Shown here: piece by piece, positions 1 to 64,000 of the stretch | How positions within the stretch are numbered: position 1 is the stretch's first letter | Layout: each line of letters begins with the position of its first letter | Source of the DNA: Stegostoma tigrinum | Lineage: Eukaryota | Assembly (NCBI RefSeq): GCF_030684315.1 | Contig: NC_081356.1 | Span: forward strand, 110,001,723 to 110,065,722 | Direction: 5' to 3' | DNA length: 64,000 nucleotides | The notes under the pieces: model-generated | Databases searched by the model: none | Seen by the model: only the letters and a program-made list of their open reading frames with translations | What the model was told of the DNA's origin: nothing | Position numbers and translations under genes: made by a program

Positions 1-2731
1 AGTGGAGCACATAACAGAACAGCAACAGGAATTATCTGAAACACAAGTTCATTTTTCATTGGAAGTCTAGTCATATACACTTATTAGTTTCATCATAAAT
101 CACATTTATGTAAACAATACTATTTCTCCTAGCATGCTGACGTATGGTGAAATGATTTTTTTTTGAAAAAGTTATGCATTACACATGCAAATTGAACCAA
201 AAATTGCATGTGTATGCAAATCGTCTTTTTTTTCTTCATTTACTAATAAGTCATTTTAGGTTAACATTAGCTTAAATGTTTGATCCACAGAACCATTAAA
301 CAAACATTAAATTTCACTTGAGATAACAAGGCGTAGAGCTAGATGAACACAGCAGGGTGCGCAGAAAAGCTGATATTTCAGATCTGGACCCTTTTTCTGA
401 AGGGCCCAGGCCGAAAATGTCAACTTTTCTGCTTGGCCTGCTGTGTTCATCCAGCCCTATGCCTTGCTACCTCAGATTCTTCAGCATCAGCAGTTCCTAC
501 TATCTCTTAAATTTCACTTGATTGTCTTTTAACAGGGTTAGATTCACATTCTGAGACAATTCAAGTTGCATAGTTATGGAAGTCCGCATTAAGTTGAGAC
601 ATGCAGATTTCAATAGTTATATACTTCATGGTAAAGCACTTTTTAAAAAGTTTCATATAGGGTTAACTACAAAGTGTTCATTTATGAAACCAATTATGTT
701 TTTCCTGCAATCACTAATTTATTTTACTCCCCACCCCAACTCACAACGCTCCTGTTTAAATGCATAAATTCTCTCAATCTCGTTCAGTGGTGCAGCAGCA
801 AGGTTAGCATGACCTAATTTTGTAACTGCAGTCTATATTACCCTGTAGCTAGACAATCCAAATGTGCTTTGTAAGTGGCAAATAACTTACTAGTAAACAA
901 AATTTTCACTGTAAAGTTGGAAGAAAAATGAGGTACACTCTAGCTCCTCAAACTACAATAGCAAAACTTACAAGCTGAGTTACAGCATTGACAATTCATG
1001 ATTTTGTTTAATTCGGAAGGGTAGTGTTTCACGCAATCCGTGCTATTGAGCCACATTATGCAGCTAAATATTTATCTGTGTCTGTGGGGGTATTTTGGTT
1101 TTTTTTTCCTGAAGTCTGAAAACATACACCTAGTTACAAAACACTTGAGCTTTTGAGTTGTGTGAAACAATAAACTATATTAATGAAACAAGTTCTAAGA
1201 TAAAGAATTTTAACATCAACTGTTATTTTCCACTAGCATGGCTACCATAAGTTCTGTTGCAGGTTTACAATTATATCCTTTACAAATCATGATTTTCTTT
1301 TCTATAATTGAGGTACTAAACAAAGGGCTAAGGCCCATGAGTACAGGGCAATGGCAAAACTGAAAACAAAGATGAGGAAAATTAGAAAACAGCAATTAGA
1401 TCATCATCAGTTTGGGTTTCAAAAGCCTGAAAATTGTAGGAAGGATTGAATCAGAGGAAGATGAATTGCTCCAGTTTTTAAACCTACTGCAAGGTAGCAT
1501 TACAGACACTAAAAATATTAACTCTTGGCCTGGCTATAGGTGTTTGACACCTTTTCAAACATTTTTAGTGTTTCCTGGATACGTTGTAATAAAAAGGTTA
1601 CACTGACTAAAAAGAAACATAGCTAAAATGTACTTTTGAAATAGCTGAAAAATCATTGCCGTTTAATGAAGAATCTCTGAAACAAGTTTGAAATTTTTGT
1701 TTAATTCTTGGCTCATTACAGCCAAATATGCTACTCAGGTTGCATTAATGAAGACTCAAAATGCATCAGTTTGTGCTCCCTCCCCTTCCAACTTTAGAAG
1801 TTGCATTCACAGGCGGCTTTGGTGTTTTAAAAACACCTAACAGAAGATTTATAACAACTGACAACACTTTTACAGGCAACAAAACAAAGCTTATATCGTG
1901 GGTATGTTTTTCTTTGAAAATATACAATATGCAGCCCTGCATAGCAATATCTGGAAAAACACATCAGCTTTAAAACAGGAAAACAAAAAAAAACACAAAA
2001 TCCGGTATGTTAGGCTGATACCATTTTTCTTGATTGACTCTCCCAGAGTGTCATAATCCTTACATATTATATACAATGATTCTACATACTGTGTGCCATT
2101 TTTTATTGAAGTCTTTTTCTCCAGGTTTTAACAGGTTTATAAAGCAGGCTGAAATGCCTGAACTCTACAAATCTGGCACTTTGTTACGGTGATCCAATTC
2201 CTTCACCTATCAAACAAAGCATTCCCTTTCTCATCTTAATTCTGGTAGATTTCCAAAGTGCCAGTTTGCTTTACTTAAAGTCCTCATTTACTTGTCAAAC
2301 CAGTCATTCCTTTTTGATACATTTCCTCAGTTCGGATCTAAGAAACACATCTCCAAAAGATACAATTAACATTTCAATGTTCCTTCTTCAGGTTTCTTTT
2401 GTAATATCCCTGGGGTGTGCAGTATCCAACATTCCAGCTGGTAAATCATCATCTTGAAGAACGTAAACAAGCACCAATAAAAATAGGCCCCAACATCCCC
2501 AACAAGGAGATGGTTTTGCCATTATCAATTAACTTGTGCTTTCTTAAAAAGCACTTCAGGATTTTACATTCGCAGCTCCACACGTTTACTTCTCCCAGTT
2601 AAATCTGTGGAAAGCTCAAATTCACTTTGCATACTGTCTTCTGAATAGGAGTCAAACTGAATCAGAGCAAAGGAGTATGAGCCTTTTCAATGACGTCAAG
2701 TCCAGAAATCAAAAACCAAGGTGTTTAGCTC
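1..2731 (-). other. PIK3R1: PIK3R1 3'UTR / downstream region (true end not determinable)
   Basis: Follows the TGA at 2732-2734; AT-rich; minus-strand AATAAA candidates at 2102-2107 and 718-723; mammalian PIK3R1 has a multi-kb 3'UTR. Confidence 0.6.
321..506. mobile_element. Penelope-derived fold-back mini-element
   Basis: Inverted arms (gatgaacacagcagg...cctgctgtgttcatc) plus gattct(t)cagcatc.gcagttcctactatctc tail; TTAAATTTCACTTGA duplicated at 307-321 and 507-521. Confidence 0.8.
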
Positions 2732-26576: not shown

Positions 26577-27729
26577 CTGGTAAATTAAGAAATGCACATG
26601 ACTACTGAAATGTTTACAAAACAAACTGGCTGTTGAGAGATTTACTTGACTAGTCTTTGGGAGTGTACTGAGTTACAAATATGCAGAAATCTGTTCACAA
26701 AAGGCTATGCCATTGCTATCAGTTATACTTTGCAAAGAACTTGTGTTATACAGATTTTCACGGCTCTAAGAAGCACATTTCAAGAAATAAAATCTACTGA
26801 TCGGGGCTTTCTAATGATGAGGCTACTTGGAACAGTATTGCATCCTACTAACTGGTAATAACTCCAGTTCTAGCCCTCACCCTCTTGAGGTAACCAATCT
26901 CAGCAAAGCAGTATTAATAGGACTATTAATAATATAATCCTGCCTAATTGTAGGGGACAGAAATATCTAGGCATTCCAATGCACTTTAAGATGCACTTTT
27001 GCAGAACTTAAGTGAAGTCCCAGCAAGGTTAAGTCCTGATAGTCCAACTGTATATCAGCACGCAGGTTTACCAATGTCAAGGTCACGATAGATTGATCAG
27101 TTCAGCTCTGAACACAAAGCATAGATGATACGACAGCAACACAAGCACTTTCTGAAAAGGTGCAGAAAAAGAAGAGTTTGCAAAATCTAGCTCCATAGGA
27201 ATCCTTTCCATCACACTATGAACAGAGATGGTATTTTTTCCCCCCAAAAAATCGCCGAGATTATGATTTGAAGGATTAATCTTATCTTCATTGGAATGTA
27301 CAAATGTACACCACATGGCACATATGTACAGAGGATTCATAAGGATCAAATTAATTTACAACACAACAGGCACAATTACCTACAGAGACCTATTATTCGG
27401 CTGGTCCACCCACACTATTTGCATGATCTTTTGATCTCTCTACCCATAACTTCTGAGAGATTCACTCTCATTTCACCTGAAGGAGCAATGCTCTGAAAGT
27501 TTAAGATTTAAAATAAACCTGTTGCACTATAATCTGGTGTCATCTGGTTTCTGACCTTGTCCACCCCAGTCCAACACTAGCACCTTCCCATCTGGAGGCA
27601 ATTAAAACTAGGTGCAATAAACAATTAGGGGAGAATACAATGCATTTCCAAAAAGATGTATTAGCTGTCCAAAAATCAGCTTATTTCAACACTTGCAGTT
27701 TTTAATACCACAATCAACACAATATTAAA

Positions 27730-28137: not shown

Positions 28138-28922
28138 CTGTAAAATACAAATGCATTCATTGGGTAAGTTACAATGCTTTAGTCATACAGGAACACTTAA
28201 ACATGAAGGAGTCTAGACAAGTTAACAAGCAACACCATTAAGTAACTAGTGTTGAACAATTCATTTGCAGCAATTCTGGCTAAATGCAGTTTAAGAAGTA
28301 GTGGCTTCCACATTAAATCCTGACATGAAACCTTTTATTCTGACTATAAAGAAAACTGAAGACTGACAATGTTTTGCAAACAAATCAGCACTGTTGAAAC
28401 AACATAACTAAAAGCTCACAACTGTAAAGTTACATGAAACATTATTTTAAAAACAAAATCTAGAAAGCCTTCTACATGTGCTTTCTTGATAAAATAGATG
28501 AGACAAAAAATGTAAAACTGTGGTTGTTCATCACATTACCAGCAACACTTACATTGAACGTTCAAATACACAAATATTTGAAACAAAAAAAAACTGAAAA
28601 CATGTTCCGAAAATTTTCCATGCGATAGTACCCGGCACCAGTTACATCGATAGCCATGGAGTGTTCACAATTAAGAGGATCTATTTGACCAAATATTCCA
28701 GTACAAATTAATGTTTACCACCTCCAGACCAGAGTTACATCAACATTGGTTTACATTACCTATTCATACTTTTACAAAAAAACCCACAAGCCTAGCAGTT
28801 TTCCCCTTATAGTGTTTGTAGTTGCTTCTGCAATCTTATCAAGAAACTCTCCTTTGAACAGATAACAGGACTAAAAACACCATTGTGAAAGCCAGCATAT
28901 GAATTCAGATTGTAAGCTTTAC

Positions 28923-29015
28923 CTGTTTTTTCAATGGCTTCTACTAATTTCACTAGGATTGCCGGTGCAACGTCTGGGAGTGAGAACTGCTCCGTTAAAT
29001 CTGGTAGAATAGAAG
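28923..29015 (-). CDS. PIK3R1: PIK3R1 exon, start of BH domain ([30 protein letters not shown]); most 5' canonical exon in the window
   Basis: 93 bp, strong polypyrimidine-CAG acceptor; matches [28 protein letters not shown]. Confidence 0.97.
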
Positions 29016-29526
29016 CTGCAGAAATATAAAAAAAAAATTAGTTAATGTTCTAGCAATCTAAAAAAAATGCATGACTGTTTAATTTTTAAATCCTAAATAA
29101 ATGTTCTTATTGACTCTGTCAATATTGCAGGCACATCCTCTCCATAAGTCTGGCACACTCAAACAGATTGTACTCTCAAACTATGTTTATTCCGATTACC
29201 CAAAGATCACGAGAAACTTGCTGGCTTAATGTTTGACTTTTCTAAAAGATATGGGACTTGAAGTAATTTATTACCATATTTAACAAAGATCTTCAAAGAC
29301 TGTTCTAATTTGTTCAGTTGGTTCACTTCTCCCAATTTCTACTTTAAAGAATTCCCAGCTTAAAATTTTTTTGGAAAACCAAAAGATTCAGTTCTTAGAG
29401 AAGTTCTTTGGGGTTTAATTGGAAATACCATATATCAGTACGACTGTATGGATTTTTACACCCAACTTGTTTATGTAGATTTGAATATACAAAAGAAATT
29501 TTAAGACTTGGTTGGGTTTGAAATTG

Positions 29527-34426: not shown

Positions 34427-36400
34427 AGACTGAGTTGGAGGAACACAGCAGGCCAGGCAGCACTAGGAGCAGGAAAGTTGACGTATCGGGTCAGGACCCT
34501 TCTTCAGGGATGGAGAGGGGGAGGGGAGTTGGGAAATAAATAAAGATAGGAGGGGTGGTGCTGGGGAGGGTAGGTGGGATGGTGATAGGTGAGGGCAGGT
34601 AGGGAGTGGTGGGAATTGGTCAGTGGGATGGGACGCATGGATAGGTGGGCGAGAATATGGACAGATTGTGTCAGGTCAAGGTGGTGGGATGAGAGGACGG
34701 CATCGACATGGGATGAGACCGGGGTAGGGAGATTTTAAAGCTGGTGAATTTCATGTTTACGCCATCGGGCTGTAGGCTCCCAAGGCAGAATATGCGGTGT
34801 TGCTTCTCCAGTTTATGGATGGTGTCACTGTGACATTGGAGGCGGCCCAGGATGCACAAGTCATTTATTTTTGTTGGGGGGAGGCAATGTGGGGGCAAAA
34901 GTGTGGGACATGAAAGAGATGTCATTAAGGGCTTTTACAATCACAGGGTGGGTAGTTAGGGTCGTTGAAATAGGACATCTGGGATGTTCTGCTCCCTACA
35001 GATGAATGGGGTGGCCACAAGCAGCCGCATAGGCCCAAGCTATGCCTGCCTCTTCGTAGGATTCGTGTTCCCCTTCCGCTGTTATGCTGGCACTATCCCC
35101 CACCCTCTTTCTCTGCTACACTGACGACTGTATTGGCAATGCCTCGTGCTCTCGTGAGTTGAGCAGTTCATCAACTTTACTAACAGCTTTCAGCCCAACC
35201 TCTAATTCACCTGGACCATCTCCAATACATCCTGGACCCCTCTGTCTCCATCTCTGGTGACTGGCTCAAAACTGACATCTATTTCAAGTCCACCACCTCC
35301 CACAGTTACCTGGACTACACATCCTATCACCCAGCTTTCTGCAGGAAAGTTCCACTCCCGACATCCAAGATGTCCTCTAACTTCAAGAACCATAACATCC
35401 TCCCTTTGGTGATTGAAAATGCCTTCACTGGCGTTTCTTGCATTTCCCACACTCCTGCCCTCACATTCCCTCCCCCAATAAAATTAACAACAGAATCCCC
35501 CTTGTCCTCACATCACCCCACCAACGTCTGCATCCAACATATAATTCTTTGGCTAACCCTATCGCCACCTACAATCCGACCCCGCAAGCAAAGAGATATT
35601 TCCCTCTGCACAATCTGATTTTCATAGGGGCCACGCTCTCACTAACTCCCTTGCCCGTTCCACATTCCCCACTAACCTACCACCTCTGGCACCTTTCACT
35701 GCAGCTGCCGGAGGTGCTACACCTGCCCTTACCACTCCCCCCTCACCTCCATATAAGGCACAAAACAAACCTTCTGTATCAGGCAGGAGATCACTTGCAC
35801 ATCTGTCAACTGTATCCACTGCTCCAGACACCTCTGCATCAGTGAGGCCATCACAGACTGTTTTGTAGAGCATCCGTGCTGTGAGAGAGAGACTAAATGG
35901 CAACACCTTCTGCTCGCCAACCACTTTAACTCCCCCCTCCCACTCCCCAGGTGACGTGTCTATCCTGGGCCTCCTCCAGTGTCACAATGACACCACCCAC
36001 AAACTGGAGGAGCAACATGTCATTCTGCCTCAGAAGTCTACAGTTCAATGGCCTAAACATGGAACTGACCAGTTTTAAAATCTCCCACCACCGGTCTCAT
36101 CCAATGTCCAAGCCTCCTGCTCATCCCTGCCTCCTTGACCTGACACAGCCTGTCCATTTTCTCTCCACCTACCCACCCCTCCCATCCCACTGAACAATCT
36201 CCACCACTCCCTACCTGCACTCACCTATCATCATTCCATCTGCCTTCCCCAGCCCCACTGCTCCACATCTCCATTTCTGAAGAAGGGTCCCAGCCTGAGA
36301 CATCATCTTTCTTGCTCCTCTAATGCTGCCTGGCCTGCTGTGTTCCTCCAACTCCATACTGTGTTATCTCAGACTCCAACAGTTTCAGTTCTTGCTACCT
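34427..36400 (+). mobile_element. Penelope-like element: inverted partial pLTR (about 34427-34860) plus RT/GIY-YIG remnant and 3' pLTR
   Basis: GVATSSRIGPSYACLFVG and YTDD (RT motifs) near 35000-35130; KLEEQH.IF/L endonuclease tail present in both orientations. Confidence 0.85.
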
Positions 36401-37056
36401 GAGTGAATCTACCACGTGAACATCAACTGTATCTTCTCTGGTGCAGCCTTTTCTACTTCCTGCTCCAATGCCATTTCCAAGCATAAAAAGGGAACAGGCC
36501 TCGAGAACTTGAGCACTTTCTGTAATTTTATTGCCATAGGTGAAGTACAAAAACACATACAAATTAAAAAACTTGCTCCAACTTGTTTACTCACAGTAGT
36601 GAATTCCTAACAGGGTTTCCTCATCACTGAGCTAAGAATACTTGTAGTCAGTGCTTTTGCTGCAATCTGCTCAGACTGAAGTCTGAGGATTCAAATGCAA
36701 TCTCAGAATACTTCAGTGACATGAAAGTGCAGTTATCAATGGTGTGTATTTCAGGTAAGAGTTTATACTTGCCTGTTCAGGCGTGTGCAAAACCTTCTCG
36801 TGGCAGTACTCAAGGAAGAACAGACAACTTTCCTGGTATCACATTCAACGCTGATTCCAAATGCACCATGTGGTCCTCTATTTTCCCACAGCACTCACCA
36901 CTATTGCAAGTAATGTATATATTTAACCACTGCCTGTAATTTCTGGAAACTCTTGATTCTGGCAAAACGTTTCACATCATTTGGTTTTAATGACCACTAG
37001 TTCTAAGGAAACAATGCATCTCAATATTCTTCTGGGTTCTAAACCAAAACTCCTCA

Positions 37057-38178
37057 GTGAGCAAGGTGAGGGCCAATGGTGTTCGAGGTGAGCTACTGGC
37101 TTGGATTGAGGATTGGCTGTCTGACAGAAGGCACAGAGTTGGGATAAAAGGCTCTTTCTTGGAATGGCAACCGGTGACGAGTGGTGTCCCACAGGGTTCA
37201 GTGTTGGGGCCGCAGCTGTTCACCTTATACATTAATGACTTGGATGAAGGGACTGGGGGCATTCTGGTGAAGTTTGCCCATGATCAAAGATAGGTGGACA
37301 GGCAGGTAGTACTGAAGAGGTGGGGAAGCTGCAGAAAGATTTAGACAGTTTAGGAGAGTGGTCCAGGAAATAGCTGATGAAATTCAATGTGAGTAAATGT
37401 GAGGTTTTGCACTTTGGAAAAAAGAATAGGCATGGGCTATTTTCTAAATGGTGAGAAAAGTCACAAAGCAGAAGTACAAAGGGATCTGGGAGTGTTGGTC
37501 CAGGATTCTCGAAAGGTTAACTTGCAGGTAGAGTCCATAATTAAAGAAAGCAAATGTAACGTTGTCGTTTATCTCCAGAGGGTTGGAATATAAAAGCAGC
37601 AATGTGCTTCTGAGGCTTTACAAAGCTCTAGTTAGGCCCCATTTAGAATACTGTGTCCAATTTTGGGCCCCACACCTCAGAAAGGACATACTAGCCCTGG
37701 AGCGTGTCCAGTGGAGATTCACACGGATGATCCCTGGAATGGTAGGTTTAACATATGATGAACAGCTAAGGATCCTGGGATTGTACTCAGAGTTTAGAAG
37801 GTTCAGGGGAGAACTAATACAAACTTACAAGATAGTGTATGGTTTAGACGGGGTGGACGCTAGGAAGTTGTTTCCGTTAGGCGGGGAGACTAGGACCCGT
37901 GGGCACAGCCCTAAAATTAGAGGGGGTAAATTTAAAACTGAAATGAGGCGACATTTCTTCAGCCAGAGTGTGGTGGGCTTGTGGAATTCATTGCCACAGA
38001 GTGCAGTGGAGGCCGGGGCGTTGGATGCCTTCAAGGCAGAGATCGACAAATTCTTGATCTCAGAAAGAATCAAGGGCTATGGGGAGAGTGCGGGGAAGTG
38101 GACTTGAAATACCCAGTCATGATTTAAATGGCGGAGTGGACTTGATGGGCCGAAAGGCCTTACTTCCACTCTTATGGT
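37057..38178 (+). mobile_element. CR1 LINE, 5'-truncated, relatively young
   Basis: [14 protein letters not shown] and LYKALVRPHLEYCVQFWAP motifs; 3' tail. Confidence 0.95.
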
Positions 38179-43519: not shown

Positions 43520-45060
43520 TTAACAAATGAGATAGCAGATCCCCCAAGAGATGTTATAACATGTTAGAATTTGGATCATAAGCAACTGTGCTAAGGTTAT
43601 ATCAGGGTAATTAGAACATAATGAAGGCACAGCACAAATTAAATTTTGAAAAAAATCTCGCTAAGTGGACTGGGAAAGGAGTTTAGCAGCAAGGACCATT
43701 CAGGGACAACGTCAGACATTTAAGCGATTAGTCACGGACTCTCAGCAAAGATATTCTAGTGAGGAAGGAGGATTCTGGGAAGGGGATAAGCCATAGATTC
43801 CCAGGGAAGGATAAAGAAAAGAAACATACAAAGTGGCAATGGTAAGTAGAAGATTGGAAAAAGATTTAAAAACCAAAGATGACCAAAGTAGTGATGAAGA
43901 AGGAGAAAATGAACTTGAAAGGTAAACTTGCAGGTAATACCAAGGGGGACAGCAAGAGCTTCTTTAAATATGAAAAAGAGGGAGAAGCCAAAGTGAATGT
44001 AGGCCTCAAATGACAAGGCTAGGGAAATAACAATAGCGAACAAAGAAATCGTAGAGGATTTGAATAAATATTTTGCATTAGTCTTCACGGTGGGAGATAG
44101 TGATTGTATACACAAATAAATATCTAAGGGTAAAAAAGACTGGCAATCAGTACCATTACTATCACTAGGGAAATTAATGGGGTTAAAGACCAATGGATCT
44201 CTAGGTCCTGACGGGATACATCCTGGTTTATTAAAAGGAAATGGCTAGATACTGGATGCACTAGTGACAATCTTCTAGGAGGGTCCGGGAGGTTTGTGAA
44301 ACTGCCAACAAAAACACCTTTTCTAAATAAAGGGAAAAGGAGTCAATAAAGGAAACAATACAAAGAAATAATAGCAGGGCATTTAGAAGTGCATAATTAA
44401 GCGAAGCCAGCGTGGCTTTAAGAAGGGGAAATAATGCCCAACAATTTTACTGCAAGTCTTTGTGGTAGAAACAGGCAGCATAGATAAGGGAGAGCAACAA
44501 ATGTAATATATTTAGAAGTTCAGAAGGCGTTTGATAATGTACCACACATTAGGCTACTTGAGACAAGAGCCCATGCTGTTGGAGGGTACATATTAGAAGA
44601 GTTATAGGATTGGCTAACTAATAGAAGGCATGGGAGATTATGAGAGCATTGCAGTGGGAGAGAGATGCCCTGAGATTTGTCCAGAGGGTAACTTCTTCAG
44701 AGTAGGCATCCTTAGAAGAGGCTTCGCATGGGGGTTAAAATTGTTTCAGAAATAATAGGAACTGCAGATGCTGGAGAATCCGATGAAGGGTCTAGGCCTG
44801 AAACGTTAGCTTTCCTGCTCGGCCTGCTGTGTTCATCCAGCTCTACACCTCGTTATCTCAGATTCTCTAGCATCTGAAGTCCCTACTATCTACAGTAGAA
44901 GGCATAGTTGGGATATGGGGTACATTCACAAAATGGTGCTCTATAACTAGTGGTGATATGTGCCACAATTATTTACAACATAGATCAATAACTTGGATGA
45001 AGAAAGTGAAGGTCCTATAACCGGGTTTGGAGGCGACAGAAACGGGGAGGGTCATTGATT
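43520..45060 (+). mobile_element. Decayed CR1 ORF2, interrupted by a Penelope mini-element (about 44685-44892)
   Basis: LNKYFALVFT, SLGPDGIHP and QRGFKKGK motifs; insert carries gatgaagggtctaggcctgaaacgttag. Confidence 0.8.
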
Positions 45061-45482
45061 CTTCTGCCACTTGAGTATAAGGGGACATGAGGAAAAAAAA
45101 GCTTATAAGCAGAGGGCAGTGGGTGCCTGGAATTTGCCGCCCGAGTTGGCGGTGGCGGCAGAGACCCTAAACTCTTTCAAAAACCACCGGGATCTGTACC
45201 TTTTGTGTTGCAAAATGCAGAGCTAAAAAGGACAGTGTGCATGAAGATTGGAATGGAAAGCATATCTGGAAGTCTTTGAGGCAACATGGACAAAGTGGTT
45301 CTAATGGTTCTATAGTTGGGAAAGCAAGTTATGAAAATGACAATGACAATCTGTAGAGGGATCGTAGACAAGGGCTGGTTAAGCAAATGCTCAAAATCTT
45401 GGCAGTTTTTAAAACTCAATGGATGAGGGTGTTGCTGGCTAGACAGCCTTTATTGCCCATAAGGCAGTTAAGAGTCAACCAT

Positions 45483-45978
45483 GATAATAAAATGTGAGGC
45501 TGGATGAACACAGCAGGCCAAGCAGCATCTCAGGAGCACAAAAGCTGACGTTTCGGGCCTAGACCCTTCATCAGAGAGGGGGATGGGGGGAGGGAACTGG
45601 AATAAATAGGGAGAGAGGGGGAGGCGGACCGAAGATGGAGAGTAAAGAAGATAGGTGGAGAGGGTGTAGGTGGGGAGGTAGGGAGGGGATAGGTCAGTCC
45701 AGGGAAGACGGACAGGTCAAGGAGGTGGGATGAGGTTAGTAGGTAGCTGGGGGTGCGGCTTGGGGTGGGAGGAAGAGATGGGTGAGAGGAAGAACCGGTT
45801 AGGGAGGCAGAGACAGGTTGGACTGGTTTTGGGATGCAGTGGGTGGGGGGGAAGAGCTGGGCTGGTTGTGTGGTGCAGTGGGGGGAGGGGATGAACTGGG
45901 CTGGTTTAGGGATGCAGTGGGGGAAGGGGAGATTTTGAAACTGGTGAAGTCCACATTGATACCATATGGCTGCAGGGT
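45483..45978 (-). mobile_element. Young 5'-truncated Penelope 3' end (pLTR) inserted in an older SINE
   Basis: Closely similar to 63281-63780; contains three tandem ~38 bp units (45821-45930). Confidence 0.9.
45545..45574 (-). ncRNA. Minimal hammerhead ribozyme motif (PLE-type)
   Basis: Minus strand reads CTGATGA-A-GGGTCTAGGCCC-GAAAC-GTC-AG: both catalytic boxes, stem II hairpin, palindromic ACGT in place of stem III. Confidence 0.7.
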
Positions 45979-47369
45979 TTACCATATTGCTGTGGGTCTA
46001 GAGCCATCAGTATGCCAACAAAGAATGGCAGCTTTCCTTCCCTAAAAAGATATTGGTAAACCAGATGGGGTTTTCTAACAATCAACAATGGATTCACCGT
46101 CATCATTAGATTTTTAATTCCAGACTCTTTCTAGTAGAATTTGAATTCAATGTTTGCCGTGGTGGGATTCTGGGCTTCCAGAACATTATCTGGATCTCTG
46201 GATTAACAGCCCAGCAATAATACCACAAGGTCAATAGCTCCCACCTCCCCCAAGATGGAACATATTTGGTGAAAATGTGAGATTTTATATTCTTCTGCCA
46301 AAGAATATAAAAGAGTTGATTATTTTTTAAATGCAGAAGGCAGCATCATTTTCCCCTTTCAACTTTATCAACGTACTGCTGTTTCATTGATAACCAAGAA
46401 ATTTCATGACATCAAGTAAAAAAAAAAGTAAGTTGCTAGGTAGGCACCATATTCACATTCACTCCCTCCACCAATGTTGCTAATGTGCATCAGTACGTGC
46501 CATCTACAGGATGAAGAATTGTAGAAATTTACCAAGGCTTGTAGGCCATCCCCACCAAACCCAATGACCACTATCATTTAGGAAGGCACTGTAGCAGATG
46601 GAACACTACCATATCCAAGCTCCTCTCCAAAGCACTCACCATCCTAACGTGGCAATATATCGCATTTTCTTCATTAACACTGGATCAAAATCATGGAACT
46701 CCCTCCCACAAAACACTGTTGTAGGTGCATCTACGCCAAAGGAAAGCAGCAGTTCAAGAAGGCACCTCATCACCGCCTTCTCAAAGGCAATTAAGGATGA
46801 GCAAATTACTTAGTCAGCAAAGCCAATGTCATTCGGTGAAGAAAAAATAGTAAAACGTAGTTGATCCAACAGTTAGCTTCTCTTATAAGTTCTAATTTTT
46901 TGCAATACATTTTTCTCACTGCTAGGTGGCATTATGTAGCAACATAAAATTCACTCCAATGGTTTTCACAAGAGCACTAAAGTGGCCAGAATAAATGAAA
47001 AGCACCACAAATATCACATTCATAACTTGAAAAGCATGCTCAAAATGCACAATAGATCTGTCAGCACCTGAGAATAAAACTATTACATATGTAAATATAA
47101 ACATCTTTCCTTGTTTCATATACTGACATATAACTATGTTTTCCAGTAATTTTAAATATCACCAGGCAAGAATCAGGCACTGCAGGAATCGTTAGCGTGT
47201 TAATAATTAAACAAATCTTCTGCTCACAAATAGTAAAACATAAAATGGAACTTAATACATTCTTGAAATTTTAAATGTTACTTTTAAAGTTAACATCTTA
47301 TTGACAATGAATAAAGTAATGAGAATCAAATTTCACACCATTTCAAATCTTTTTCGGGAAACTTTTCCT

Positions 47370-48770: not shown

Positions 48771-49080
48771 TTGCCAATTATGTAGGTTTGGAAGGGTTTA
48801 ACACAAAACCATTCTTTACATCAAATAATTATTGATCAAAAGGATATAAAAGCACCCATACAAAAAAGAAATTATTTCTCAAACAAGTATTAACATGGGT
48901 TACTTTGGCCCAAAGTAAGGCAATTTTACAATCTGGACAGAGTTCAATTTGATAAAAGTTTGAAGGCTGGTGAAGGAGAAGTCGGACAGATTAGATTGAT
49001 CAGTGTTCTACAAATTTCAATTACTAATTTTAATACCACTTTTGCCAGGATAAGTTTTCCAAACACACTGGTAATGCTAG

Positions 49081-49156
49081 ATAACAAATTGTGGAGCTGG
49101 ATGAGCACAGCAGGCTAAGAGGCGTCTTAGGAGCACAGAAGCTGACGTTTCAGGCC
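49081..49156 (-). mobile_element. Penelope pLTR mini-insert
   Basis: Single arm ending at the hammerhead core; tggtaatgctag duplicated at 49069-49080 and 49159-49170. Confidence 0.8.
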
Positions 49157-49859
49157 TCGACCGTTCATCAGAAAACAATGGTAATGCTAGCCAGTCTGCA
49201 GGAATATTTAAAACAAAGATTTCATATATCCATTTCCAGATTATAAAGTACCTCAGAACTAAGTTTTAAAAATTCATCTTTGTATTCATTACATTTCAAA
49301 GGGTGAATAATTACAATATTGAATTGCAACTCTGCAACCCATGCCAACCAGCCTTGATGGATTCATTCTATAAGCATCACCTCAGGACCAATGGTTAAAG
49401 AAAATATAGGTCAAGCTTAATTTGAAATTTTAGTTTTTTCCTCCCCTCCCCCCACCCCACAATTAAAAACAGCTATGGGTTCTGGAAGACAAACTTGTAC
49501 TTCCCCATTCAGGAAAGCAAAACATTAGATTTACTGTTATTGTGTTAATAAATTAAAACTAACATTTAGGAATAGGGTTTCAAGACCAATCTTTTCATTT
49601 TATCCAAACAAATATGAAGTCTCCTCCACAAAGGAAACTCAAAATATGCAAAAGGAGGAAACAAAAACCATATAGTTTAAAAGAACTATCTTGTCAGAGT
49701 CAGAAATAACAGCGACTTTGCTGCATGTGCTGTAACAATTCAAAAGGAGCTTACAATCACCTTCTCAAGGGAAAGAACTAAGACAGGCAATAGAAGCAAA
49801 CAAAGCTTACGTCCAAGAAAGAAGAAAGAATTCAAGTAATTATTATATAAACAAAGGAG

Positions 49860-50914: not shown

Positions 50915-51994
50915 AGCAGCATTAAAAAAATGCAGTGAAAAAAAATCCATTTACCTAGGTTCATCTTTGCCCTAGATGAATCTTAAAGATCCAAAGCTTG
51001 AAGGATTTCTTTTTTAAGGAGAGAGAAGCTACATTGAAATAAATCTCAAAACACCTAAGGGACCAGTAGTGAAAAGCCAATTTAGTTAGCCATTCTCAAT
51101 AAAACAAATTGAAGAAAGCAACTGAAAAATACAATAGGGATAGAGACCATGAAATATGCGGTTTAGGTAGAAATGAAAGATTAAGTGGTACAGGAACTAA
51201 CCTCAAACTCAAAATGTTTCACAGAGGACAAATCCTACTCAATATTCCATGATTAATTAAGTAACACATCAGAATTTTAACCAGGAATCAGTGGAGAAGA
51301 ACGGTACAAGCAGGAAAAGAGGTGCCACAAAACGTTGAAGACAGAGGTTATAAAAATTATTAAACCGCAAGCTCAGTCCATCTGGTGTGACCCTAAGTGG
51401 ATTGTAAAACATTAAAAAATAAAATTTGGCAGGGAGGAGGCTTCCAAAAATTCAGTGAAGAAAACGTGATGGGATTAGTTATAAGAACAAAGATACAACC
51501 ATAGAACAAGAGGAGGCCACTCAGTCCTTTGAACTTGCTGCACCGTTCAAAATGATCCTGACTGATATGATTATAGCCTCAACTCTACACTCCAGCTTAG
51601 CCCTGATAGTCAAGGATCAAATCTCGATTTAAAAATATGTAGAGATTCTGCATCGATCAGGAATTCCAAAGCCTTAACCCACAATTCTTTCCCGCTCACC
51701 TTAATCTTAAATGAGCAACCCCTTATTTTTTAACCGTAATCCCTAGTCCTAGAATCTTCCACCAGAGGAAACATCCTTTCCACATCCACCTGTGCCCTCT
51801 CAGGATCTTGTTTCAATTAAGTCACCTCTGACTCTTCCGAACTGCAGAGGATATAATCCTGGATTTTCCTCAACACAATCTGCTCATTCCGGGTATGTGT
51901 ATAGTAAACATTTTTTTAAACTGCTTCTAACATATTAGCATCCTTCCTTAAACACGATGACCAGCATTGTAAATAGTACTCCAGATTAAGTCTT

Positions 51995-53012
51995 ACCTCA
52001 TGCCTTGCACAACCAAAACAGAATCCCCCCTCGTCCTCACGTACCACCCCACCAACATCCAGATCCAACGCTTCATCCTCCGACGTTTCCGCCATCTACA
52101 ATCTGACCCCACTACCAAAGACATTTTTCCTTCCCCACCCTTATCGGCCTTCCGGAGGGACCACTCTCTCCATGACTCCCTTGTCTGCTCCACACTCCCC
52201 TCCAGACCCACCACCCCTGCAACCAAAGCGCGCGCTACAACTGTCCCTACACCTCTCCCCTCACCCCCATCCCAGGCCCTAAGAAGACCTTCCACATCAA
52301 ACAGATGTTCACCTGCGCATCTGCTGATGTGGTATACTGTATCCACTGTTCCCATTGTGGCCTCCTCTACAATCGAGGAAACCAAGCAGAGGCTTGGGGA
52401 CCACTTTGCAGAACACCTACCTCAGTTCACAACAAACAACTCCACCTCCCAGTCGCCAACTAATTCAACTCCCCCTCCCACTCCTTGGATGACATGTCCA
52501 TCCTGGGCCTCCTGCACTGCCACAATGACACCATGCAAAAACTGCAGGAACAGCATCTTATATTCCGCTTGGGAAGCCTGCAACCCAAGGGTATCAATGT
52601 GGACTTCACAAGCTTTAAAATCTCCCCTCCCCTGACTGCATCCCAAAACCAGCCCAGCTAATACCCACCTCCCTAACCATTTCTCCCACCTCAAGCCCCA
52701 CCCCATCTCCTATCCACCAACCTCATCCCACCTCCTTGGCCTGTCTGTCCTCCCCAGACTGACCTATCCCCTCCCTAACTCCCCACCTACATTCACTACT
52801 GGCTCCAACCCCACCTCTTTGACCGGTCTGTCTCCTCTCCACCTATCTTCTCCTCTATCCATCTTCTATCCGCCTCCCCTTCTTTCCCTATTTATTTCAG
52901 AATCCCCTTCCCTTCCCCCATTTCTGAAGAAAGGTCTCAGCCTGAAACATCGGCTTTCCTGCTCCTGTGATGCTGCTTGGCCTGCTGTGTTCGTCCAGCT
53001 CTATACCATTCT
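51995..53012 (+). mobile_element. Penelope-like element 3' part (GIY-YIG endonuclease remnant plus pLTR) nested in a minus-strand CR1 (51498-53120)
   Basis: PLVLTYHP, FRRDHSLHDSLV and ETKQRLGDHFAEHL motifs; terminal ctgaagaaaggtctcagcctgaaacatc core. Confidence 0.9.
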
Positions 53013-54102
53013 ATACTAGCTTCCCTGATTACGTGCTGGACCTGCAAACTCAGATTTGTGCATTAGGCCAGCCAATCTCCACTGCAACCTCTCACCATTT
53101 AGATAATGCACATTTTCTATTGCAAAGTTGAGTAGAGTTTTTGTGGGCTAGGAAGCAGGACATTAAAATTTGGTGTTTGTAAAATGCTAGGTTGGGTGGA
53201 TCTGGGGGTGGGGGAGAACAGTAGTGCATAGTAGAGATTCAAAAAGGATGCCTGTGGGCAGCAGCTCGTGGGTTTGCAAGCACATAGCACACCTGAATTG
53301 AAACATCTGTATCCAAAGTCTATGCAGTTAGCAGACCAAACAGCAGTTGTTATCAAGACCATGTTTTGAATTTAGCCAGTTTGAACAAAGCACCTAGTTA
53401 CCAAAAGAACCAAGTAGGTTTAAATTTGATGGCTTTGATAACATAAGAACAATCCTATTGTAAGAAATATTTATAAGTCATCAAAGGCACAACAAAAAGG
53501 AGCAGTCGGTCAAAGACAACAGGCCAAACTGCCATCTGCAAGAGTTAACAGCTCTTGGATCGCAAGACAGAATTGCTAACTCGGTCTAAGTTTTAGGGAA
53601 AGCAACACCTTTGCCCACTCAAAACTATTTATATCCTTCTAATCTTCTAATGTCCTCTTTACAACACATTTTCATAATGGCAAAACTGGTATCATACCTT
53701 CATTCAAATTATTTATATAAAAATTGCTTTTAAAAAAAGTTGAAGTCTTAGCGTAAATCCCTGCAGCACACGACTCACGAAATCCCTGCCAGCCTGAAAA
53801 AGATTTATTTGTTCCTACTCTACTTCCTGTTAGCTAGCCAAATTTCCATCCATGCCAATGTTACTTCCTAAACCATTAACTTTTTCCACGCTCTACAATA
53901 ACCTTTAATAGTGGCACCTTACCATAAATACCGTCTTGAAAACTAAGTATAATACACCCACTGGTTCTACATCAGCTACAACATTTATAGACTTGGACTA
54001 TAAATTTGAAAAAAAAAAGGACGAGGTTTCAACAGTCTCTAATTTCCTGGTTTGCTGTCTGAGAGAATACTTCAATGTAAATCAGTTTACCCTGCTACAC
54101 AA

Positions 54103-54225
54103 GATAACAAGGTGTGGAGCTGGATGAACACAGCAGGCCAAGCAGCATCTCTTGGCCTGCTGTGTTCACCCAGCTCGACACCTTGTTATCGCGGATTCGC
54201 CAGCATCTGCACTTCCTATTATCTC
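54103..54225. mobile_element. Penelope-derived fold-back mini-element lacking the ribozyme core
   Basis: gataacaaggtgt...acaccttgttatc arms; ttaccctgcta(c/t)acaa duplicated at 54087-54102 and 54226-54241. Confidence 0.85.
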
Positions 54226-55063: not shown

Positions 55064-55305
55064 AAACCGAAAGAACTGCAGGTGCTGTAAATCAGGAACA
55101 AAATCAGAAGTTGCTGGAAAAGCTTGGTGGGTCTGGCAGCATCTGGGAATAAAAAAAAATCAGTTAATGTTTTGGGTCCGGTTCTAAGGAAGGGTAACCA
55201 TACTGAAACGTTAACAATATTTCACCACGCCCAACAGATGCTGCCAGACCCATTGAGCTTTTCCAGCTATTTCTGATTTTGTTTGATTTACAGTTCTTTC
55301 GGTTT
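55064..55305. mobile_element. Second-family Penelope-like fold-back element
   Basis: aaaccgaaagaactg / cagttctttcggttt termini, gggtctggcagcatctg / cagatgctgccagaccc arms, gaaacgtt core. Confidence 0.75.
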
Positions 55306-56812
55306 TTAAGATCAAGTGCAGACTGGGTGACTGCTTTGTGAAACAGTTCAGTTTTGTCCATTAGAACAACTCCAACCCTCCAGTTGCTACTCATTTCAAT
55401 TCAACACATTGCTCTCACGTGAACACTTCTGATCTAGGTTTGCTTCAGTGTTCAAATGAAGTTCAACACTAGCTAGCTAGACAAACAGCACTTCATTTCA
55501 TGCTTTAGTAATTTACAGCCTCAGGAGTCAATGCTGAGTTTGACAAGTCAGAGCACGAATACTGTCCCCTACTTTAGTTACCACCCCTTGTTCTGCTCTG
55601 TACTTCCTCCTCCTCCCATCATCATTTCCGGAATCACAAGTATTTTTGTCTACAATTCACACTTAACATTAAGACCTATCTTGCAGCTGTATCTTTATTT
55701 TCATCAGCATTCCCTTTGGTCGTTTTCTCTGGGTCCCCTCACCATTCCATCTATTTGCTCCTCCCTCTGTCAACAGCATATAAAAAATTATTTCCCACCT
55801 TTAGTTGTGAGGTTGTCAATTAACTTGAAACATTAACTGTTACTCTCCAGACATTGATTTTCTCAAGCACTTTCTGCAGAATTTCACATCAACCACAATT
55901 AAAAAGTACACAGGAAAATAATATCCTTAACAAAAGTTAAATGAGCTTAAAGTGTACATAGCTTTAAAAAAATGCTTTTTAGAAAGGAGATAAAGGAGGC
56001 AAATATCTTTTGCGTTAGTGAAAAGCCCAAAAGATGATCCACAGTAAAGGAGTCATAGTCCTACCACATTATAGGGGTGCACTCAAACAAGAGAGACAAC
56101 TGTGGTTTAACTTGACAGTTGCCAACTCTCAGTTGAGAAGGAGTGTCCTTCGTGGTAACCTCAGTTAATGCAGTAATTGAGCCCTTGCTATTGGAATCAC
56201 TTTACATTACAAAACCAGTTATCTGGCCAACTTAGCTAACCAGTCCCTAATGTACAATCGTAAGAAACTATGGGATACCAGTGATAAATAAACAATGAGC
56301 AGACACTTCTTAATTCTAACAGGTAATTTAGTGCTGTGCCATCTAGAGCCTCTAAAAAAACACTCCATATCTGAAGTAGTAGTAATATTTTAACATGCTG
56401 GCATTTTATTTAGAAGACTGTCAACATAAAAGGAAGAGATACACAAACAGTGCTCGAAAGTTACTGCAATCATACATCAGAAATAATTCTTAGTCACATC
56501 TGCACTGACTTATTCAAAGTGCCCAATGATAATCTTATCCATGAAATGTAAAGCTTTTCCAAGGAAAAAATAACCAGAACTTTCTTTCTGCCACACATGG
56601 TGATTTTCTCTGGCATGCAATTAATCCCGCCAGAAGGCAAACTATGCTTCCACAAACTATCCTTGCCAATTTAAACAAAAGGTTCAAGCATAGGAACACA
56701 CATGTACGTACATGCAAGCAAAAGCTGGAGAAATGCAGCCGACAAAGTTTCCAAATTAACTAGAAAACCTAACAAAGTACAATTAAGGAGAAAAAAAAAT
56801 CTGCTTTAAACT

Positions 56813-57039
56813 AAGTGTAGAGCTGGATGAACACAGCAGGCCAAGCAGCATCTTAAGAGCACAAAATCTGATGTTTCGGGCCTAGACCCTTCATCAGAAA
56901 AAACTGTTTTATCTGATGAAGGGTCTAGGCCCGAAACATCAGCTTTTGTGCTCTTAAGATGCTGCTTGGCCTGCTGTGTTCATCCAGCTCCACACTTTGT
57001 TATCTCAGATTCTCCAGCATCTGCAGTTCCCATTATCTC
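56813..57039. mobile_element. Near-perfect Penelope-derived hairpin (about 85 bp arms) with hammerhead motifs on both strands
   Basis: 56813-56898 inverts 56912-56997; cores at 56868-56897 (-) and 56913-56942 (+); tttaaact flanks both sides. Confidence 0.9.
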
Positions 57040-58197: not shown

Positions 58198-59546
58198 TAG
58201 AACATAGAAAAGTACAGCACAGTACAGGCCCTTCAGCCCACGATGTTGTGCCGTGGAATAATCCAAATCCAAAAATAAAATAACCTAACCTACATTCCCC
58301 TCAATTCACTGCTGTCCATGTGCATGTCCAGCAGTCGCTTAAATGTCACTAATTACTCTGCTTCCACCATTACCACTGCTAAACTATTCCATGCACTCTC
58401 AACTCTCTGGGTGAAGAACCTCCCTCTGATGTCTCCTCTATACCTTCCTCCTAACACCTTAAAACTATGACCCCTCAAGGCAGTCAATCCTGCCCTGGGG
58501 AAAAGTCTCTGACTATCGACTCTATCCATGCCTCTCATTACCTTGTACAGCTCGATCAGGTCACCTCTCTTCCTCCTCCTCTCCAGAGAGAAAAGTCCGA
58601 GCTCAGTCAACCTCTCCTCGTAAGACAAGCCCTCCAGTCCAGGCAGCATCTTGGTAAGCCTCCTTTGCACCCTCTCCAAAGCCTCCACATCTTTCCTATA
58701 ACAGGGTGACCAGAACTGGGCACAATATTCCAAGTGTGGTCTCACCAGGGTTTTGTAAAGCTGCAGCATAACCTCACAGCTCTTAAACTCGATCCGCCTG
58801 TTAATGAAAGCCAAAACACCATGTGCTTTCTTAACAACCTTATCCACCTGGGAGGCAACTTTGAGGGAGCTATGCACTTGAACACCAAGATCCCGCTGTT
58901 CCTCCACAGTGCTGAGATTCCTATATTCAGCATTTAAGTTCGACCTTCCAAAATGCATCACTTCGCATTTATCCAGGTTGAACTCCATCTGCCATTTCTC
59001 AGCCCAGCACTGCATTCTGTCAATGTCTCGCTGAAGCCTGCAATAGCCCTTGATACTATCAACAGCACCTCCAACCTTTGTGTCATCAGCAAACATACTA
59101 ACCCACTCCTCAATCTCCTCATCCAAGTCATTTATAAAAACTACAAAGAGCTGAGGCCCAAGAACAGAGCCCTGCGGGACACCACTCAGCATTGACCTCC
59201 AGGCAGAATACTTACCATCTACAACCACACTCTGCTTCCTGTCAGTCAACTAATTCTGAATCCAGACAGCCAAATCATCCTGTATCCCACACCTCCTGAC
59301 TTTATGAATGAGCCTGCCGGGGGGACCTTATCAAATGCCTTGCTGAAGTCCATGTACACCACATCCACTGCTTGACCCTCGTCAACTTGTCTCGTGACTT
59401 CCTCAAAGAACTCAGTAAGATTTGTAAGGCATGACCTGCCCCTCACAAAGCCATGCTGATTCCCTTTAATCATGCTATGCTTTTCCAAATAGTCATAAAT
59501 CCTATCCCTCAGAATTCTTTCCAAAACCTTGCTGACCACAGACGCA
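58198..59546 (-). mobile_element. CR1 LINE RT region, young, 5'-truncated
   Basis: 298-aa ORF with [14 protein letters not shown] and LVRPHLEYC; upstream QHGFVRGRSCLTNL and DFSKAFD; 3' tail. Confidence 0.96.
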
Positions 59547-61166
59547 AGACATTTCACATTGCTGCTATATTGGCATCCCCAAATCCTCAATTATAGCCTT
59601 CAGTAATGTGCAAGTGTTGACACATTACCTTGCTTGAGTTTGAATATTAACGCACTTGTATAAATGAAAAGTATTAAAATCTGAAATAAGAGTAAAAAGT
59701 GCTGCAAATGCAAATCACTTAGTATCTCAGAAAATCAGGTCAATGTCTGATATGCATCCTTCACCAGACTGAAAAATAAATTATGGAGAGTATAGAAAAG
59801 GAGAGAAGTGCTTCTCTGATACAGGGAATTAATGAGTTGAATAAATCAAATTATTTTGAAAAGAGAGACATGATAAATATTACACTCCCTAAAAGCAAGG
59901 GAGATATATTCAAAGAATGCACAATTTCCTATGACAATTTTTTCATACTTTAGTTGCACAGTTGTAAAACTGAATGCTGGGGGAGAAGGCAGTAAGAGCA
60001 GAGAAACAAACAGAAATTGCCCATTCATCACCACTCCTAGCTGAAATCAACCTTATCAGCGGGATTTGCAGGACATTCTCATTATGGTCATATATTCTCA
60101 AATCCAGTGATAGCAATGAAAGGATGTTTTAAAATGATTTTTTTTGACATTTCTTGGCTAAAATTGGCCTTTTATAGATTAATGCGTATTTACTTCACTA
60201 CAGAAGAAAAACAGTCCATTTTGCTTCCAAATAAAATTGACAAACTTGAAGACAGTTAACTCTTCCTTACTAAGCATAATAAATAGCAAGAATTACTTTT
60301 TATAATAAGTATTGTTCCATAAAAATTGGAGACAAAGCATTGTCTCACTATTCCATCTGCCTTTTATAAGAATTTGTGGTACATAAGGTCAAATGGCCAT
60401 ATGTCAAAAGCAAGTGGGCTTTCACCAACTTCTTGGTACCATCTATATTAAAATACATGGCAGATCAAATCCTTCGAGTTAGGAGTTTCATTAGTGCACA
60501 ACGATATTTTGAAGGCTAACAAAAGAAATTACAGTGCGCCAAAGATCCTCCAACATAGAAGGAATTTCTCATTTCTTAATTCAACTGCACTGCATATTTC
60601 ATAAATTCCTTGCTAAGTAAATCAGGGAATGGACAACAGAATCTTATTTAATGGCTGCATGCCATTTTGCTTTCTTTGATTTCCAGAGCCATTAGTTTGG
60701 CACCAAGTATTCCTCTACTCCAGCCAACAGCTTCCTCTGTCCAAAATCAGTCACAAAATAAAGTAAATTAAAGAAAATTGAAATACGTAACATATCAAAA
60801 TTGCAATTATCATCACCCAGGACTTCAGCAGCACTTCCACATAAATGTTAAATATTTTATGAAGTACACAGTATAGTACACATGTAAACCTTTAAAATAC
60901 ATAAATTTTTTTTTAAAAAATCAACTTGTTTGGACATGACAAGTCTCACTTCCAGGACAGAACATCTTCTGACCAGTGGTTTGGACTGTTAAGACTATAA
61001 CGATAATGGGGTTCTTAACTGCAAATTTGAACTGAATATGTTACCAAATAGAAGCAAAACATTTGCAACACAAGGTGGCCCATTTCACCTGACCCTATCA
61101 GTACTAGATGTCTTCACTTCAACAGTGTAGCTTTGGGTATGTTGCTTCTTTGTAATTTTTTTCTTG

Positions 61167-62377
61167 GAATATAAAATTGCACAGCACTGTACAGGCCCAC
61201 TGTCCCATGATGTTGGGCCGAATTTTTGCCCTAAATCTAAAGGTCAATCTAACCTCCAACCCTACTTTATACCATCGTCCATATGCCTATCTAATAGCCG
61301 CTTAAAATGCCCCTACTGAGGCCGACTCCACTGCCCTCTCCAGCAATGCATTCCACGTCCCTACCACCCGAGTAAAGAACCTACCTCTGACGTCTCCCCT
61401 ATATCTACCTCCACTCACTTTAAAACTATGCCACCTCGTAACAGCTACCTCCACCCGAGGAAAAAGTCTCTTGCTATCCACTCTACCTATACCTCTGATC
61501 GTTTTGTACGCATCTAGCAAGTCATCTGTCACCCTTTGTCGTTCCAAAGAGAAAAGCCTTCGCTCTCTTTCTCAACTTTTCCTCATAAGACCTTCTCTCC
61601 ATTCCAGGCAACATCCTGGTAAATCTTCTCTGCACCTTTTCCAACGCTTCCACATCTTTCCCGTAATGTGACCAGAACCAGATAGACAATACTCCAGATG
61701 TGGCGAAACCAGGCTTTTCTATAGCTGGAGCACAACTTCACTGCTTCTGAACTCAATCCTCCATTAAAGAAAGAGAATGCACCATCCTTAACAACTCTAT
61801 CCACTTGGGTGGCAGCTTTCAGGGAACTGCAGACATGAACCCAGAGATTCCACTGCTCCTCCAGACTGCCAAGAATCTGTTAACCCTATGTTCTGCTTTC
61901 AAGTTTGTCCTTCCAAAAACAATTACCTCACTTGTCAGGGTTAAACTCCATCTGCCAGTTCTCAGCCCAGCTCTGCATCCTATCAACGTCCCTTTGCAAC
62001 CTAGAACAGTCCTCCGCACTATCCACAACTCGACCCACCTTCACATCGTCCGCGAACTTGCTAATCCACCCTTCCACTCCTACATCCAAATCATTTACAA
62101 AAATCACAACAGAAGCGGATCCAGAACAGATCCTTCTGGTACACCATTCGTATCTGAGCACCATGTTCAATATTTTCTGTCCACTACCACCTTTTGTCTA
62201 AGGGTCAGCCAATTCTGAATCCAATCTGCCACATTTCCCCCATCCCATGATTCCTTACCTTCTGCGTGAGCCTACCTTATCAAATGCCTTACTTAAATCC
62301 ATATATACCACATCCACTGCTCTACCCTCATCCATGTGTTTGGTCACCTCCTCAGAGGATTCAATAAGGTCGGTAAG
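61167..62377 (-). mobile_element. CR1 LINE fragment
   Basis: ISKFADD...WQMEFNPDK; similar to 58198-59546. Confidence 0.92.
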
Positions 62378-63280: not shown

Positions 63281-64000
63281 GATAATGAAATGTGAGGCTG
63301 GATGAACACAGCAGGCCCAGCAGCATCTCAGGAGCACAAAAGCTGACGTTTCAGGCCTAGACCCTTCATCAGAGAGGGGGATGGGGAGAGGGTTCTGGAA
63401 TAAATTGGGGGGGGGGGTGGCGGACCTAAGATGGAGAGAAAAGATGATAGGTGGAGAGGAGAGTATAGGTGGGGAGGTAGGGAGGGGATAGGTCAGTCCA
63501 GGGATGATGGATAGGTCAAGGGAGGTGGGATGAGGTTAGTAGGTAGGAGTTGGAGGTGCGGCTTGGGGTGGGAGGAAGGGATGGGTGAGAGGAAGAACAG
63601 GTTAGGGAGGCAGAGACAGGTTGGACTGGTTTTGGGATGCAGTGGGTGGAGGGGAAAAGCTGGGCTGGCTGTGTGGTGCAGTGAGTGGAGGGGACGAACT
63701 GGGCTGGTTTTGGGATGCGGTGGGGGAAGGGGAGATTTTGAAGCTGGTGAAGTCCACATCGATACCATTGGGCTGCAGGGTTCCCAAGCGGAATATGAGT
63801 TGCTGTTCCTGCAACCTTCGGGTAGCATCATTGTGGCCCTGCAGGAGGCCCATGATGGACATGTCATCTAAAGAATGGGAGGGGGAGTGGAAATGGTTTG
63901 AGGCTTGGGGACCACTTTGCAGAACACCTCCGCTCAGTGCGCAATAAACAACTGCACCTCCCAGTCGCAAACCATTTCCACTCCCCCTCCCATTCTTTAG
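63281..64000 (-). mobile_element. Penelope inverted pLTR structure running off the window end
   Basis: Minus arm 63281-63900 (RRLQEQQLIFRLGTLQPNGI; hammerhead core 63343-63372) flips to plus strand at about 63901; 63868-63900 inverts 63968-64000. Confidence 0.9.

Follow-up and report, generated by a model that had tools for sequence, protein, structure and literature searches.

Minimal hammerhead ribozymes of Penelope-like elements (PLEs) were described in 2014 (Cervera and de la Pena 2014; PMC4209133, accessible portion), and thus the class of motif analysed here is already known; it is in scale that the family of the shark Stegostoma tigrinum is unusual. As in the PLEs of that report, the shark motif is of type I, lacks loop 3, has a palindrome at 15.2/16.2, an extra nucleotide between 9 and 10.1 and a G10.1-C11.1 pair, occupies both pseudo-LTRs (pLTRs) of its element, and occurs in masses of solo truncated copies and in close opposite-strand pairs. 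It departs from them in a stem II of 4-5 bp, in a stem I that has 2 bp in the young family and 4 bp in the older family B, and in number: 90,316 copies are identical here, while Xenopus has about 9,000 motifs and coelacanth about 4,000; no shark is named in the main text of that paper as far as it is accessible. The same portion reports a 2-bp helix I from D. virilis and a low level of in vitro cleavage by dimers of minimal hammerheads, and dimer cleavage by Lunse et al. 2016 is cited in the accessible part of a review (PMC6765202). Up to 120,000 hammerheads are given for axolotl (PMC7229834, accessible portion). In a search of titles and the starts of abstracts, we found nothing on shark PLE hammerheads or cut-site junctions; the species tables of the 2014 paper and the tables of the preprint bioRxiv 2026.07.22.740005 could contain a shark family.

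The Poseidon element PAc of Anolis carolinensis (Frangieh et al. 2024; PMC11167929) shares with the shark element a hammerhead in the pLTR, two classes of 3' end 35-40 nt apart and AT-rich junctions. The tail of PAc is defined by two reverse-transcription start sites, and its hammerhead cleaves only with the element's protein and is dispensable for insertion. In contrast to PAc, the shark element carries a C-x4-C-x2-C linker of the Neptune/Nematis type, and its long frame begins after the tail and not in stem II. The ultraconserved intronic hammerheads of amniotes, RECK and others (PMC6155905, accessible portion), are likewise of type I and on the sense strand of an intron, but these are canonical, single-copy and conserved, whereas the shark motif is minimal and present in about 90,000 identical recent insertions which decay neutrally. 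The minimal form, the recent insertion and the neutral decay speak against a domesticated intronic hammerhead of the RECK type, which has canonical stems I-III and a conserved single copy. Non-LTR retrozymes are also short non-coding hammerhead repeats related to PLE pLTRs; according to the accessible portions of PMC7229834 and bioRxiv 2026.07.22.740005, however, these form head-to-tail tandems with canonical hammerheads, while the short shark copies are solo or head-to-head. For the question of what role PLE hammerheads play in vivo the shark family is a strong natural test bed, and its copy number of at least 90,316 permits genome-scale tests of strand bias, decay and junction position.

Our main reading, to which we give a probability of roughly 0.8, is that the motif is a minimal hammerhead in the pLTR of a very young and abundant PLE, and that its copies in the PIK3R1 intron are inert passengers decaying neutrally. 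It is built on the motif, the insertion with its target duplication, the structure of the parent element, the copy numbers, the missing strand bias and the symmetric CpG decay, all observed directly. The main features of the locus, in coordinates of the window (the whole stretch of 64,000 nucleotides that was analysed, at C3:110001723-110065722), are as follows.

45545-45574, minus strand: minimal type I hammerhead motif with CUGAUGA, an extra A, stem II and GAAAC-GUC
45483-45980, minus strand: young 5'-truncated Penelope-like insertion of 498 bp
45478-45482, minus strand: 3' copy of the target-site duplication ATGGT, the 5' copy being at 45981-45985
29038-64000, minus strand: part of the PIK3R1 intron of about 56 kb, boundary approximate

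On the minus strand, C3 of the motif is at 45574, the extra A at 45567, G12 at 45554 and C17 at 45547; stem II (45566-45555) has 4 bp around a CUAG loop, stem III is replaced by the palindrome ACGU (45551-45548), stem I has 2 bp, and the cut is predicted between 45547 and 45546. The original prediction had proposed a minus-strand hammerhead with both boxes, a stem II, a GUC triplet, this cut, a stem III reduced to ACGU and a stem I of about 2 bp, and the sequence reads exactly so. The CUGANGA and GAAA boxes, the G10.1-C11.1 pair in stem II, the NUH triplet, the palindromic stem III and the extra nucleotide after A9, by which PLE minimal hammerheads are recognised, are all present; helix I, for which 4-5 bp are typical of the class, has 2 bp in the focal family and 4 bp in family B. 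A covariance-model search, which had been proposed as a check, gave no hammerhead among 14 Rfam matches at E<=10, and the minimal form fits no hammerhead model there.

The insertion comprises an ORF end (45979-45799, the GIY-YIG C-terminus), a pyrimidine-rich 3' UTR (45798-45575), the hammerhead, which lies in the pLTR 62 nt from the 3' end, and a tail (45544-45483). It interrupts an older repeat which elsewhere runs on unbroken, and the 40 copies that were scored, out of 655 candidates, are 98-100% identical to it, one of them 100% over 493 nt. Of four copies traced upstream, one (L036) is full-length and unbroken, and the other three are truncated or broken. In L036 an inverted truncated copy is followed by a hammerhead-bearing pLTR, an unbroken frame of 1108 aa and, 3,681 nt on from the first, a second pLTR that also bears a hammerhead; a single ORF with reverse transcriptase (RT) and C-terminal GIY-YIG, direct pLTRs, the inverted truncated copy and the tail are the marks of an endonuclease-bearing PLE. 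This structure supports the earlier identification of the motif as a Penelope-type minimal hammerhead. The L036 protein matches RVT_1 (E 3e-6) and GIY-YIG (E 0.004), both under the Pfam cut-offs, and contains YIDD, a C-x4-C-x2-C linker and a CCHH pattern. The linker has the CX2-5CxxC form that is found between RT and endonuclease in Neptune and is common to Nematis, being a mark of one or the other (PMC8557442, accessible portion), and vertebrate PLE reports name Neptune and Poseidon only (bioRxiv 2026.07.22.740005, accessible portion); the linker is thus of Neptune type, and the element may belong to the Neptune clade. Upstream of the RT, at residues ~255-315 of the L036 ORF, is a variable tandem repeat of TADGTPP type. 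We also noticed a 27-codon upstream frame in the tail (L036:4303-4390, minus; window 44700-44780), which ends at an in-frame TGA before the long ORF, as seen in both of the two checkable copies, with an ATG 12 codons later.

The host gene was identified as PIK3R1 on the minus strand, as the original prediction had it, from an iSH2 exon scoring 94.9 bits to p85alpha vs 65.3 to p85beta and from RhoGAP exons at 26344-26601 and 24477-24716 (minus strand); SH2 pieces are encoded too. The motif is on the sense strand of an intron of about 56 kb, between the SH3-coding exon, which is outside the window, and the first BH-domain exon (frame 28810-29037). To judge by its characteristic motifs, the SH3 exon lies about 21 kb past the window end, and the intron presumably belongs to p85alpha transcripts only, the shorter mammalian isoforms starting downstream. 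A second p85/p55 gene, a paralogue encoding an iSH2 region, is on contig C10 (66500340-66504005, plus strand). One contig, from a related organism and a run presumed to be RNA, bridges the intron that holds the decayed copy at 25999 and so connects two PIK3R1 exons; as evidence it is too weak to use.

The exact 30-mer of the motif occurs 90,316 times genome-wide (45,079 and 45,237 on the two strands), while the reversed control occurs 0 times. A sample of 761 kb, made up of PIK3R1, 78 kb upstream of it and 20 dynein heavy-chain regions of 30 kb, contained 264 profile matches, of which 53 are intact, and 0 in reversed decoys. Extrapolation from this non-random genic sample gives about 1.1 million motifs in total and about 220,000 intact ones, with a density of one intact copy per ~29 kb per strand. 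In the window itself, the core pattern CTGANGAN{8,30}GAAA has 13 matches where 5.5±2.2 are expected, a total of 13 being attained in 0 of 100 shuffles, 15 relatives (8 minus, 7 plus) come from an ungapped scan, and a profile search of 2701-64000 finds 23 matches, among which only 45545-45574 and 63343-63372 pass a strict test of intactness (both boxes, stem II of >=4 bp, pairable 15.2/16.2, and UH). The other copies are as follows.

63343-63372, minus strand: second intact sense hammerhead by the strict test, with a G10.1-U11.1 wobble; the truncated copy that holds it is longer and extends from 63281 as far as the end of the window
56805-57005, both strands: head-to-head pair of short hammerhead+tail copies (56868-56897 minus, 56913-56942 plus)
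25959-26178, both strands: head-to-head pair of decayed short copies (25999-26028 minus, 26048-26077 plus)
49080-49175, minus strand: decayed sense copy from the ungapped scan, core 49142-49171, G10.1 altered
34432-34511, minus strand: decayed sense copy with a broken GAAA box, from the window scan
18966-19060, minus strand: decayed sense copy with A9 and stem III altered, from the window scan
44630-44900, both strands: older copy from the window scan, a plus-strand hammerhead+tail (44780-44896) joined head-to-head to a minus-strand piece
55108-55272, both strands: decayed head-to-head pair of the older family B from the profile search, with N7=G, a GUU triplet and a 4-bp stem I

All further sense and antisense cores that had been predicted exist, but the one placed at 49122-49151 is really at 49142-49171. 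Only two of the seven listed sense copies, 17.8 kb apart, keep an intact core, and the other five are broken in the core or a stem. Both arms of the pair at 56805-57005 carry G16.2A, which breaks the stem III palindrome, and the minus-strand piece in 44630-44900 holds a tail end and the 5' region of the ORF. Further copies are at 370-399 (minus), 394-423 (plus), 36277 (plus) and ~29616 (plus), besides older-family ones. Small palindromic pairs that are tail-only or decayed were seen at 320-473, 8551-8622 and 54099-54194, the first and last of which have weak Rfam microRNA matches far below the gathering score because both are hairpins. The same PLE group has also left older, frameshifted remnants, among them parts coding for GIY-YIG, at 35184-36130, 51973-53019 and 34549-34867, and the open frames at 36994-38107, 58353-59590 and 61306-62377 resemble reverse transcriptase ends of the CR1/L2 type of LINE.

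Across 167 full-coverage copies (129 classed A and 38 classed B, a few of them misassigned), both families keep C3, U4, G5, A6, G8, A9, A13, A14 and A15.1. At N7 family A has U or A and family B has G or A, at H17 A has C whereas B has U, and loop II and stem I differ between the families, stem I having 2 bp in young A and 4 bp in B. Pair 2.2-1.2 is U-A in 30, U-G in 21 and C-G in 13 of 76 distinct rows (80 of the 167 copies). Formally, covariation is weak: the score of the whole structure was reached by 14 of 500 shuffles and is inflated by the kinship of the rows, and the stem I cells pair in 63.5%. A fixed core with varying N7, H17 and stem I fits selection on active lineages but is no proof of catalysis. 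The predicted folds bear out the earlier caveat of an inactive hairpin, which reaches -11.4 kcal/mol vs -3.6 for stems I+II, with a probability of about 1e-4 for the 2.1-1.1 pair; the best predicted dimer is a non-catalytic duplex at -38.0 vs -13.3 kcal/mol for stems II+III.

The 3' ends of the copies fall mainly at +61..68 (32 of 89) and +97..104 (38 of 89) relative to the cut site. On the 5' side, the UTR is absent in 78 of 132 copies with an intact first box, similarity upstream is at background by -33, and 25 of 89 alignments start at -34..-27, which partly reflects subfamily divergence upstream. Pairs are head-to-head in 50 cases (100 of the 264 matches) vs 5 tail-to-tail, and by hand count 54 of the 100 head-to-head arms end at -33..-27, such an arm occurs in 37 of the 50 pairs, and an end at 0/+1 is seen for 2 arms, at a resolution of about 3 nt and with the profile edge at -35. 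We found no spike of 5' ends at the cut site: none of the 89 alignments starts at 1.1, and 3 start at -2/-1. Genome-wide step counts of 185,031, 179,596 and 171,331, which include substitutions, correspond to a loss of 4.6% across the cut and 2.9% just after it. As the short copies mostly start 0-5 nt upstream of the core, away from the cut site, they point to uncleaved templates.

From these ends a life cycle may be proposed. Transcription would start about 4 nt upstream of C3, to judge by the copy ends, and position -32 presumably fits initiator-like sequences in all three subfamilies. Penelope pLTRs contain an internal promoter (PMC2377424, accessible portion). Reverse transcription would likely start at two tail sites, about 65 and 100 nt past the cut site, and the copying of mostly uncleaved RNA would yield long 5'-truncated copies of the focal type and many short hammerhead+tail copies, often head-to-head; self-priming on an antisense template has been proposed for the PLE head-to-head palindromes already known (PMC3846280, accessible portion). 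If most templates were copied uncleaved up to a start shortly before the core, the limit of 4 bp on stem I would be accounted for too. The ribozyme would be retained by selection on the active lineages of the element and its cutting confined to RNA of the element itself, where it would dimerise by way of ACGU and the protein of the element would probably assist, whereas in naked or intronic RNA it would mostly be trapped in the inactive hairpin.

Perfect head-to-head palindromes number 709 genome-wide at the predicted cut; the two control sites, ACGU and a downstream GGCC, have 39 and 23. Among six inspected copies without the two bases before the cut, five start at 1.1, and four of these are palindromes or nearly so centred on AGCU; among five control copies one step later, two are truncations at +1/+2. 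In one copy (L110, contig C1:1272354) just the two bases that precede the predicted cut, U16.1 and C17, are missing. The first 20 palindromes on contig C1 (L120-L139, e.g., C1:654391) have distinct flanks, seven of them with duplications of 13-21 bp, and their arms share subfamily variants, one arm with and the other without the 35-40 nt tail; they are therefore independent insertions. AGCT-centred palindromes were absent from the unselected DNA sampled, as their rarity predicts. We offer only tentatively, as a doubtful reading, that the genome holds a fossil record of the cut in vivo, with 709 junctions at the cleavage site and a main short class whose ends lie at a transcription start 4 nt before the core. 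In that case the hammerhead would make up the initial 32 nt of the element RNA, and the cut would strip the capped end from a minority of templates. Were this true, it would be the first genomic evidence of PLE minimal hammerheads acting in the germline, and a junction excess due to cleavage would be in vivo evidence of a kind not given in the literature consulted here. Several points count against cleavage, however. A junction at the cut equals a blunt join at +2, exactly where the reverse transcriptase meets the inactive hairpin, and the excess possibly comes from pausing of the enzyme; the other two perfect palindromes seen (-32, -30) are also centred on AG\|CT, a preference that lies outside the ACGU and GGCC controls; and deletion from longer palindromes could yield the same junction form.

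The original prediction went further and proposed that two sense copies in one intron dimerise and cut the nascent PIK3R1 transcript. In its fullest form, the intact copies at 45545 and 63343 would pair by ACGU into a dimer during transcription, and the resulting cleavage of the pre-mRNA would reduce the output of p85alpha. Both copies are indeed intact by the strict test, in the sense strand of one intron, and dimers cleave at a low level in vitro (PMC4209133, accessible portion), but the other five of the seven sense copies are broken, these two are 17.8 kb apart, and the inactive hairpin and the non-catalytic duplex dominate the predictions. Strand bias is missing as well: genic matches in 683 kb (PIK3R1 and 20 dynein heavy-chain regions) are 108 sense and 105 antisense (n=213, 84 of them in opposite-strand pairs), or 91 vs 89 after removal of four of the 20 dynein regions with weak orientation support. 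PIK3R1 alone has 12 sense vs 13 antisense, and solo copies overall 65 vs 64. Intact genic copies are 22 sense and 18 antisense (n=40; intact vs broken by strand p=0.71), a test of modest power (95% CI of the sense share 0.38-0.71) on genes that are mostly dyneins with probably restricted expression. The single CpG of the motif spans C11.1 and G12, and its decay is nearly symmetric, with C11.1T in 8,084 vs G12A in 7,779 copies genome-wide, the tolerated change being 4% in excess (p=0.016); after C11.1T a G-U pair remains, while G12A removes the general base (PMC6155905, accessible portion). Inserted copies are therefore neither protected nor purged through G12. Further, with an intact copy every ~29 kb on each strand, the same effect would be expected in most large genes, and given its 100% identity to another locus over 493 nt the focal insertion is too recent for a conserved regulator. 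We consider such cutting of the host transcript very improbable, and as a regulator of PIK3R1 the motif is probably of no importance.

The missing bias fails to prove missing cutting because hammerhead-cut introns can still splice (PMC2995048, accessible portion), and occasional cleavage of intronic copies is compatible with the data. That intronic copies are cut now and then, for example with the germline protein of the element, and that exon tethering rescues splicing with no fitness effect, would accord with the protein-assisted cleavage of the anole element (PMC11167929), with slow hammerheads in introns that permit splicing (PMC2995048) and with the 709 insertions centred on the cut site, which hint at some RNAs ending there. 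Most copy ends are upstream of the core, however, and none of the anole reads began or ended at the site (PMC11167929), so we hold this to be improbable. Against the passenger reading itself counts the depletion of canonical retrozymes from Xenopus introns (bioRxiv 2026.07.22.740005, accessible portion). The motif of the young family may even be non-catalytic altogether because its stem I has only 2 bp, and it could now serve as a promoter, a protein-binding or a reverse-transcriptase pause element whose hammerhead-like sequence is kept by descent. The short stem I, the stable alternative hairpin, the unaffected in vitro insertion of hammerhead mutants of the anole element (PMC11167929) and the Naiad elements that thrive without hammerheads (PMC8557442, accessible portion) agree with this. 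The catalytic positions are nevertheless all held across diverged families, the variation at N7 and H17 stays among the permitted bases and there is compensation in stem I, and we regard a non-ribozyme role as unlikely; it would in any case be compatible with the reading of intronic copies as passengers.

Family B, seen at 55108-55272 and in many dynein introns, consists of older hammerhead+tail units of ~100-130 bp, in which the upstream UTR is absent in 30 of 30 core-covering copies, and its ATG is directly preceded by a polypyrimidine tract and CAG, resembling a splice acceptor.
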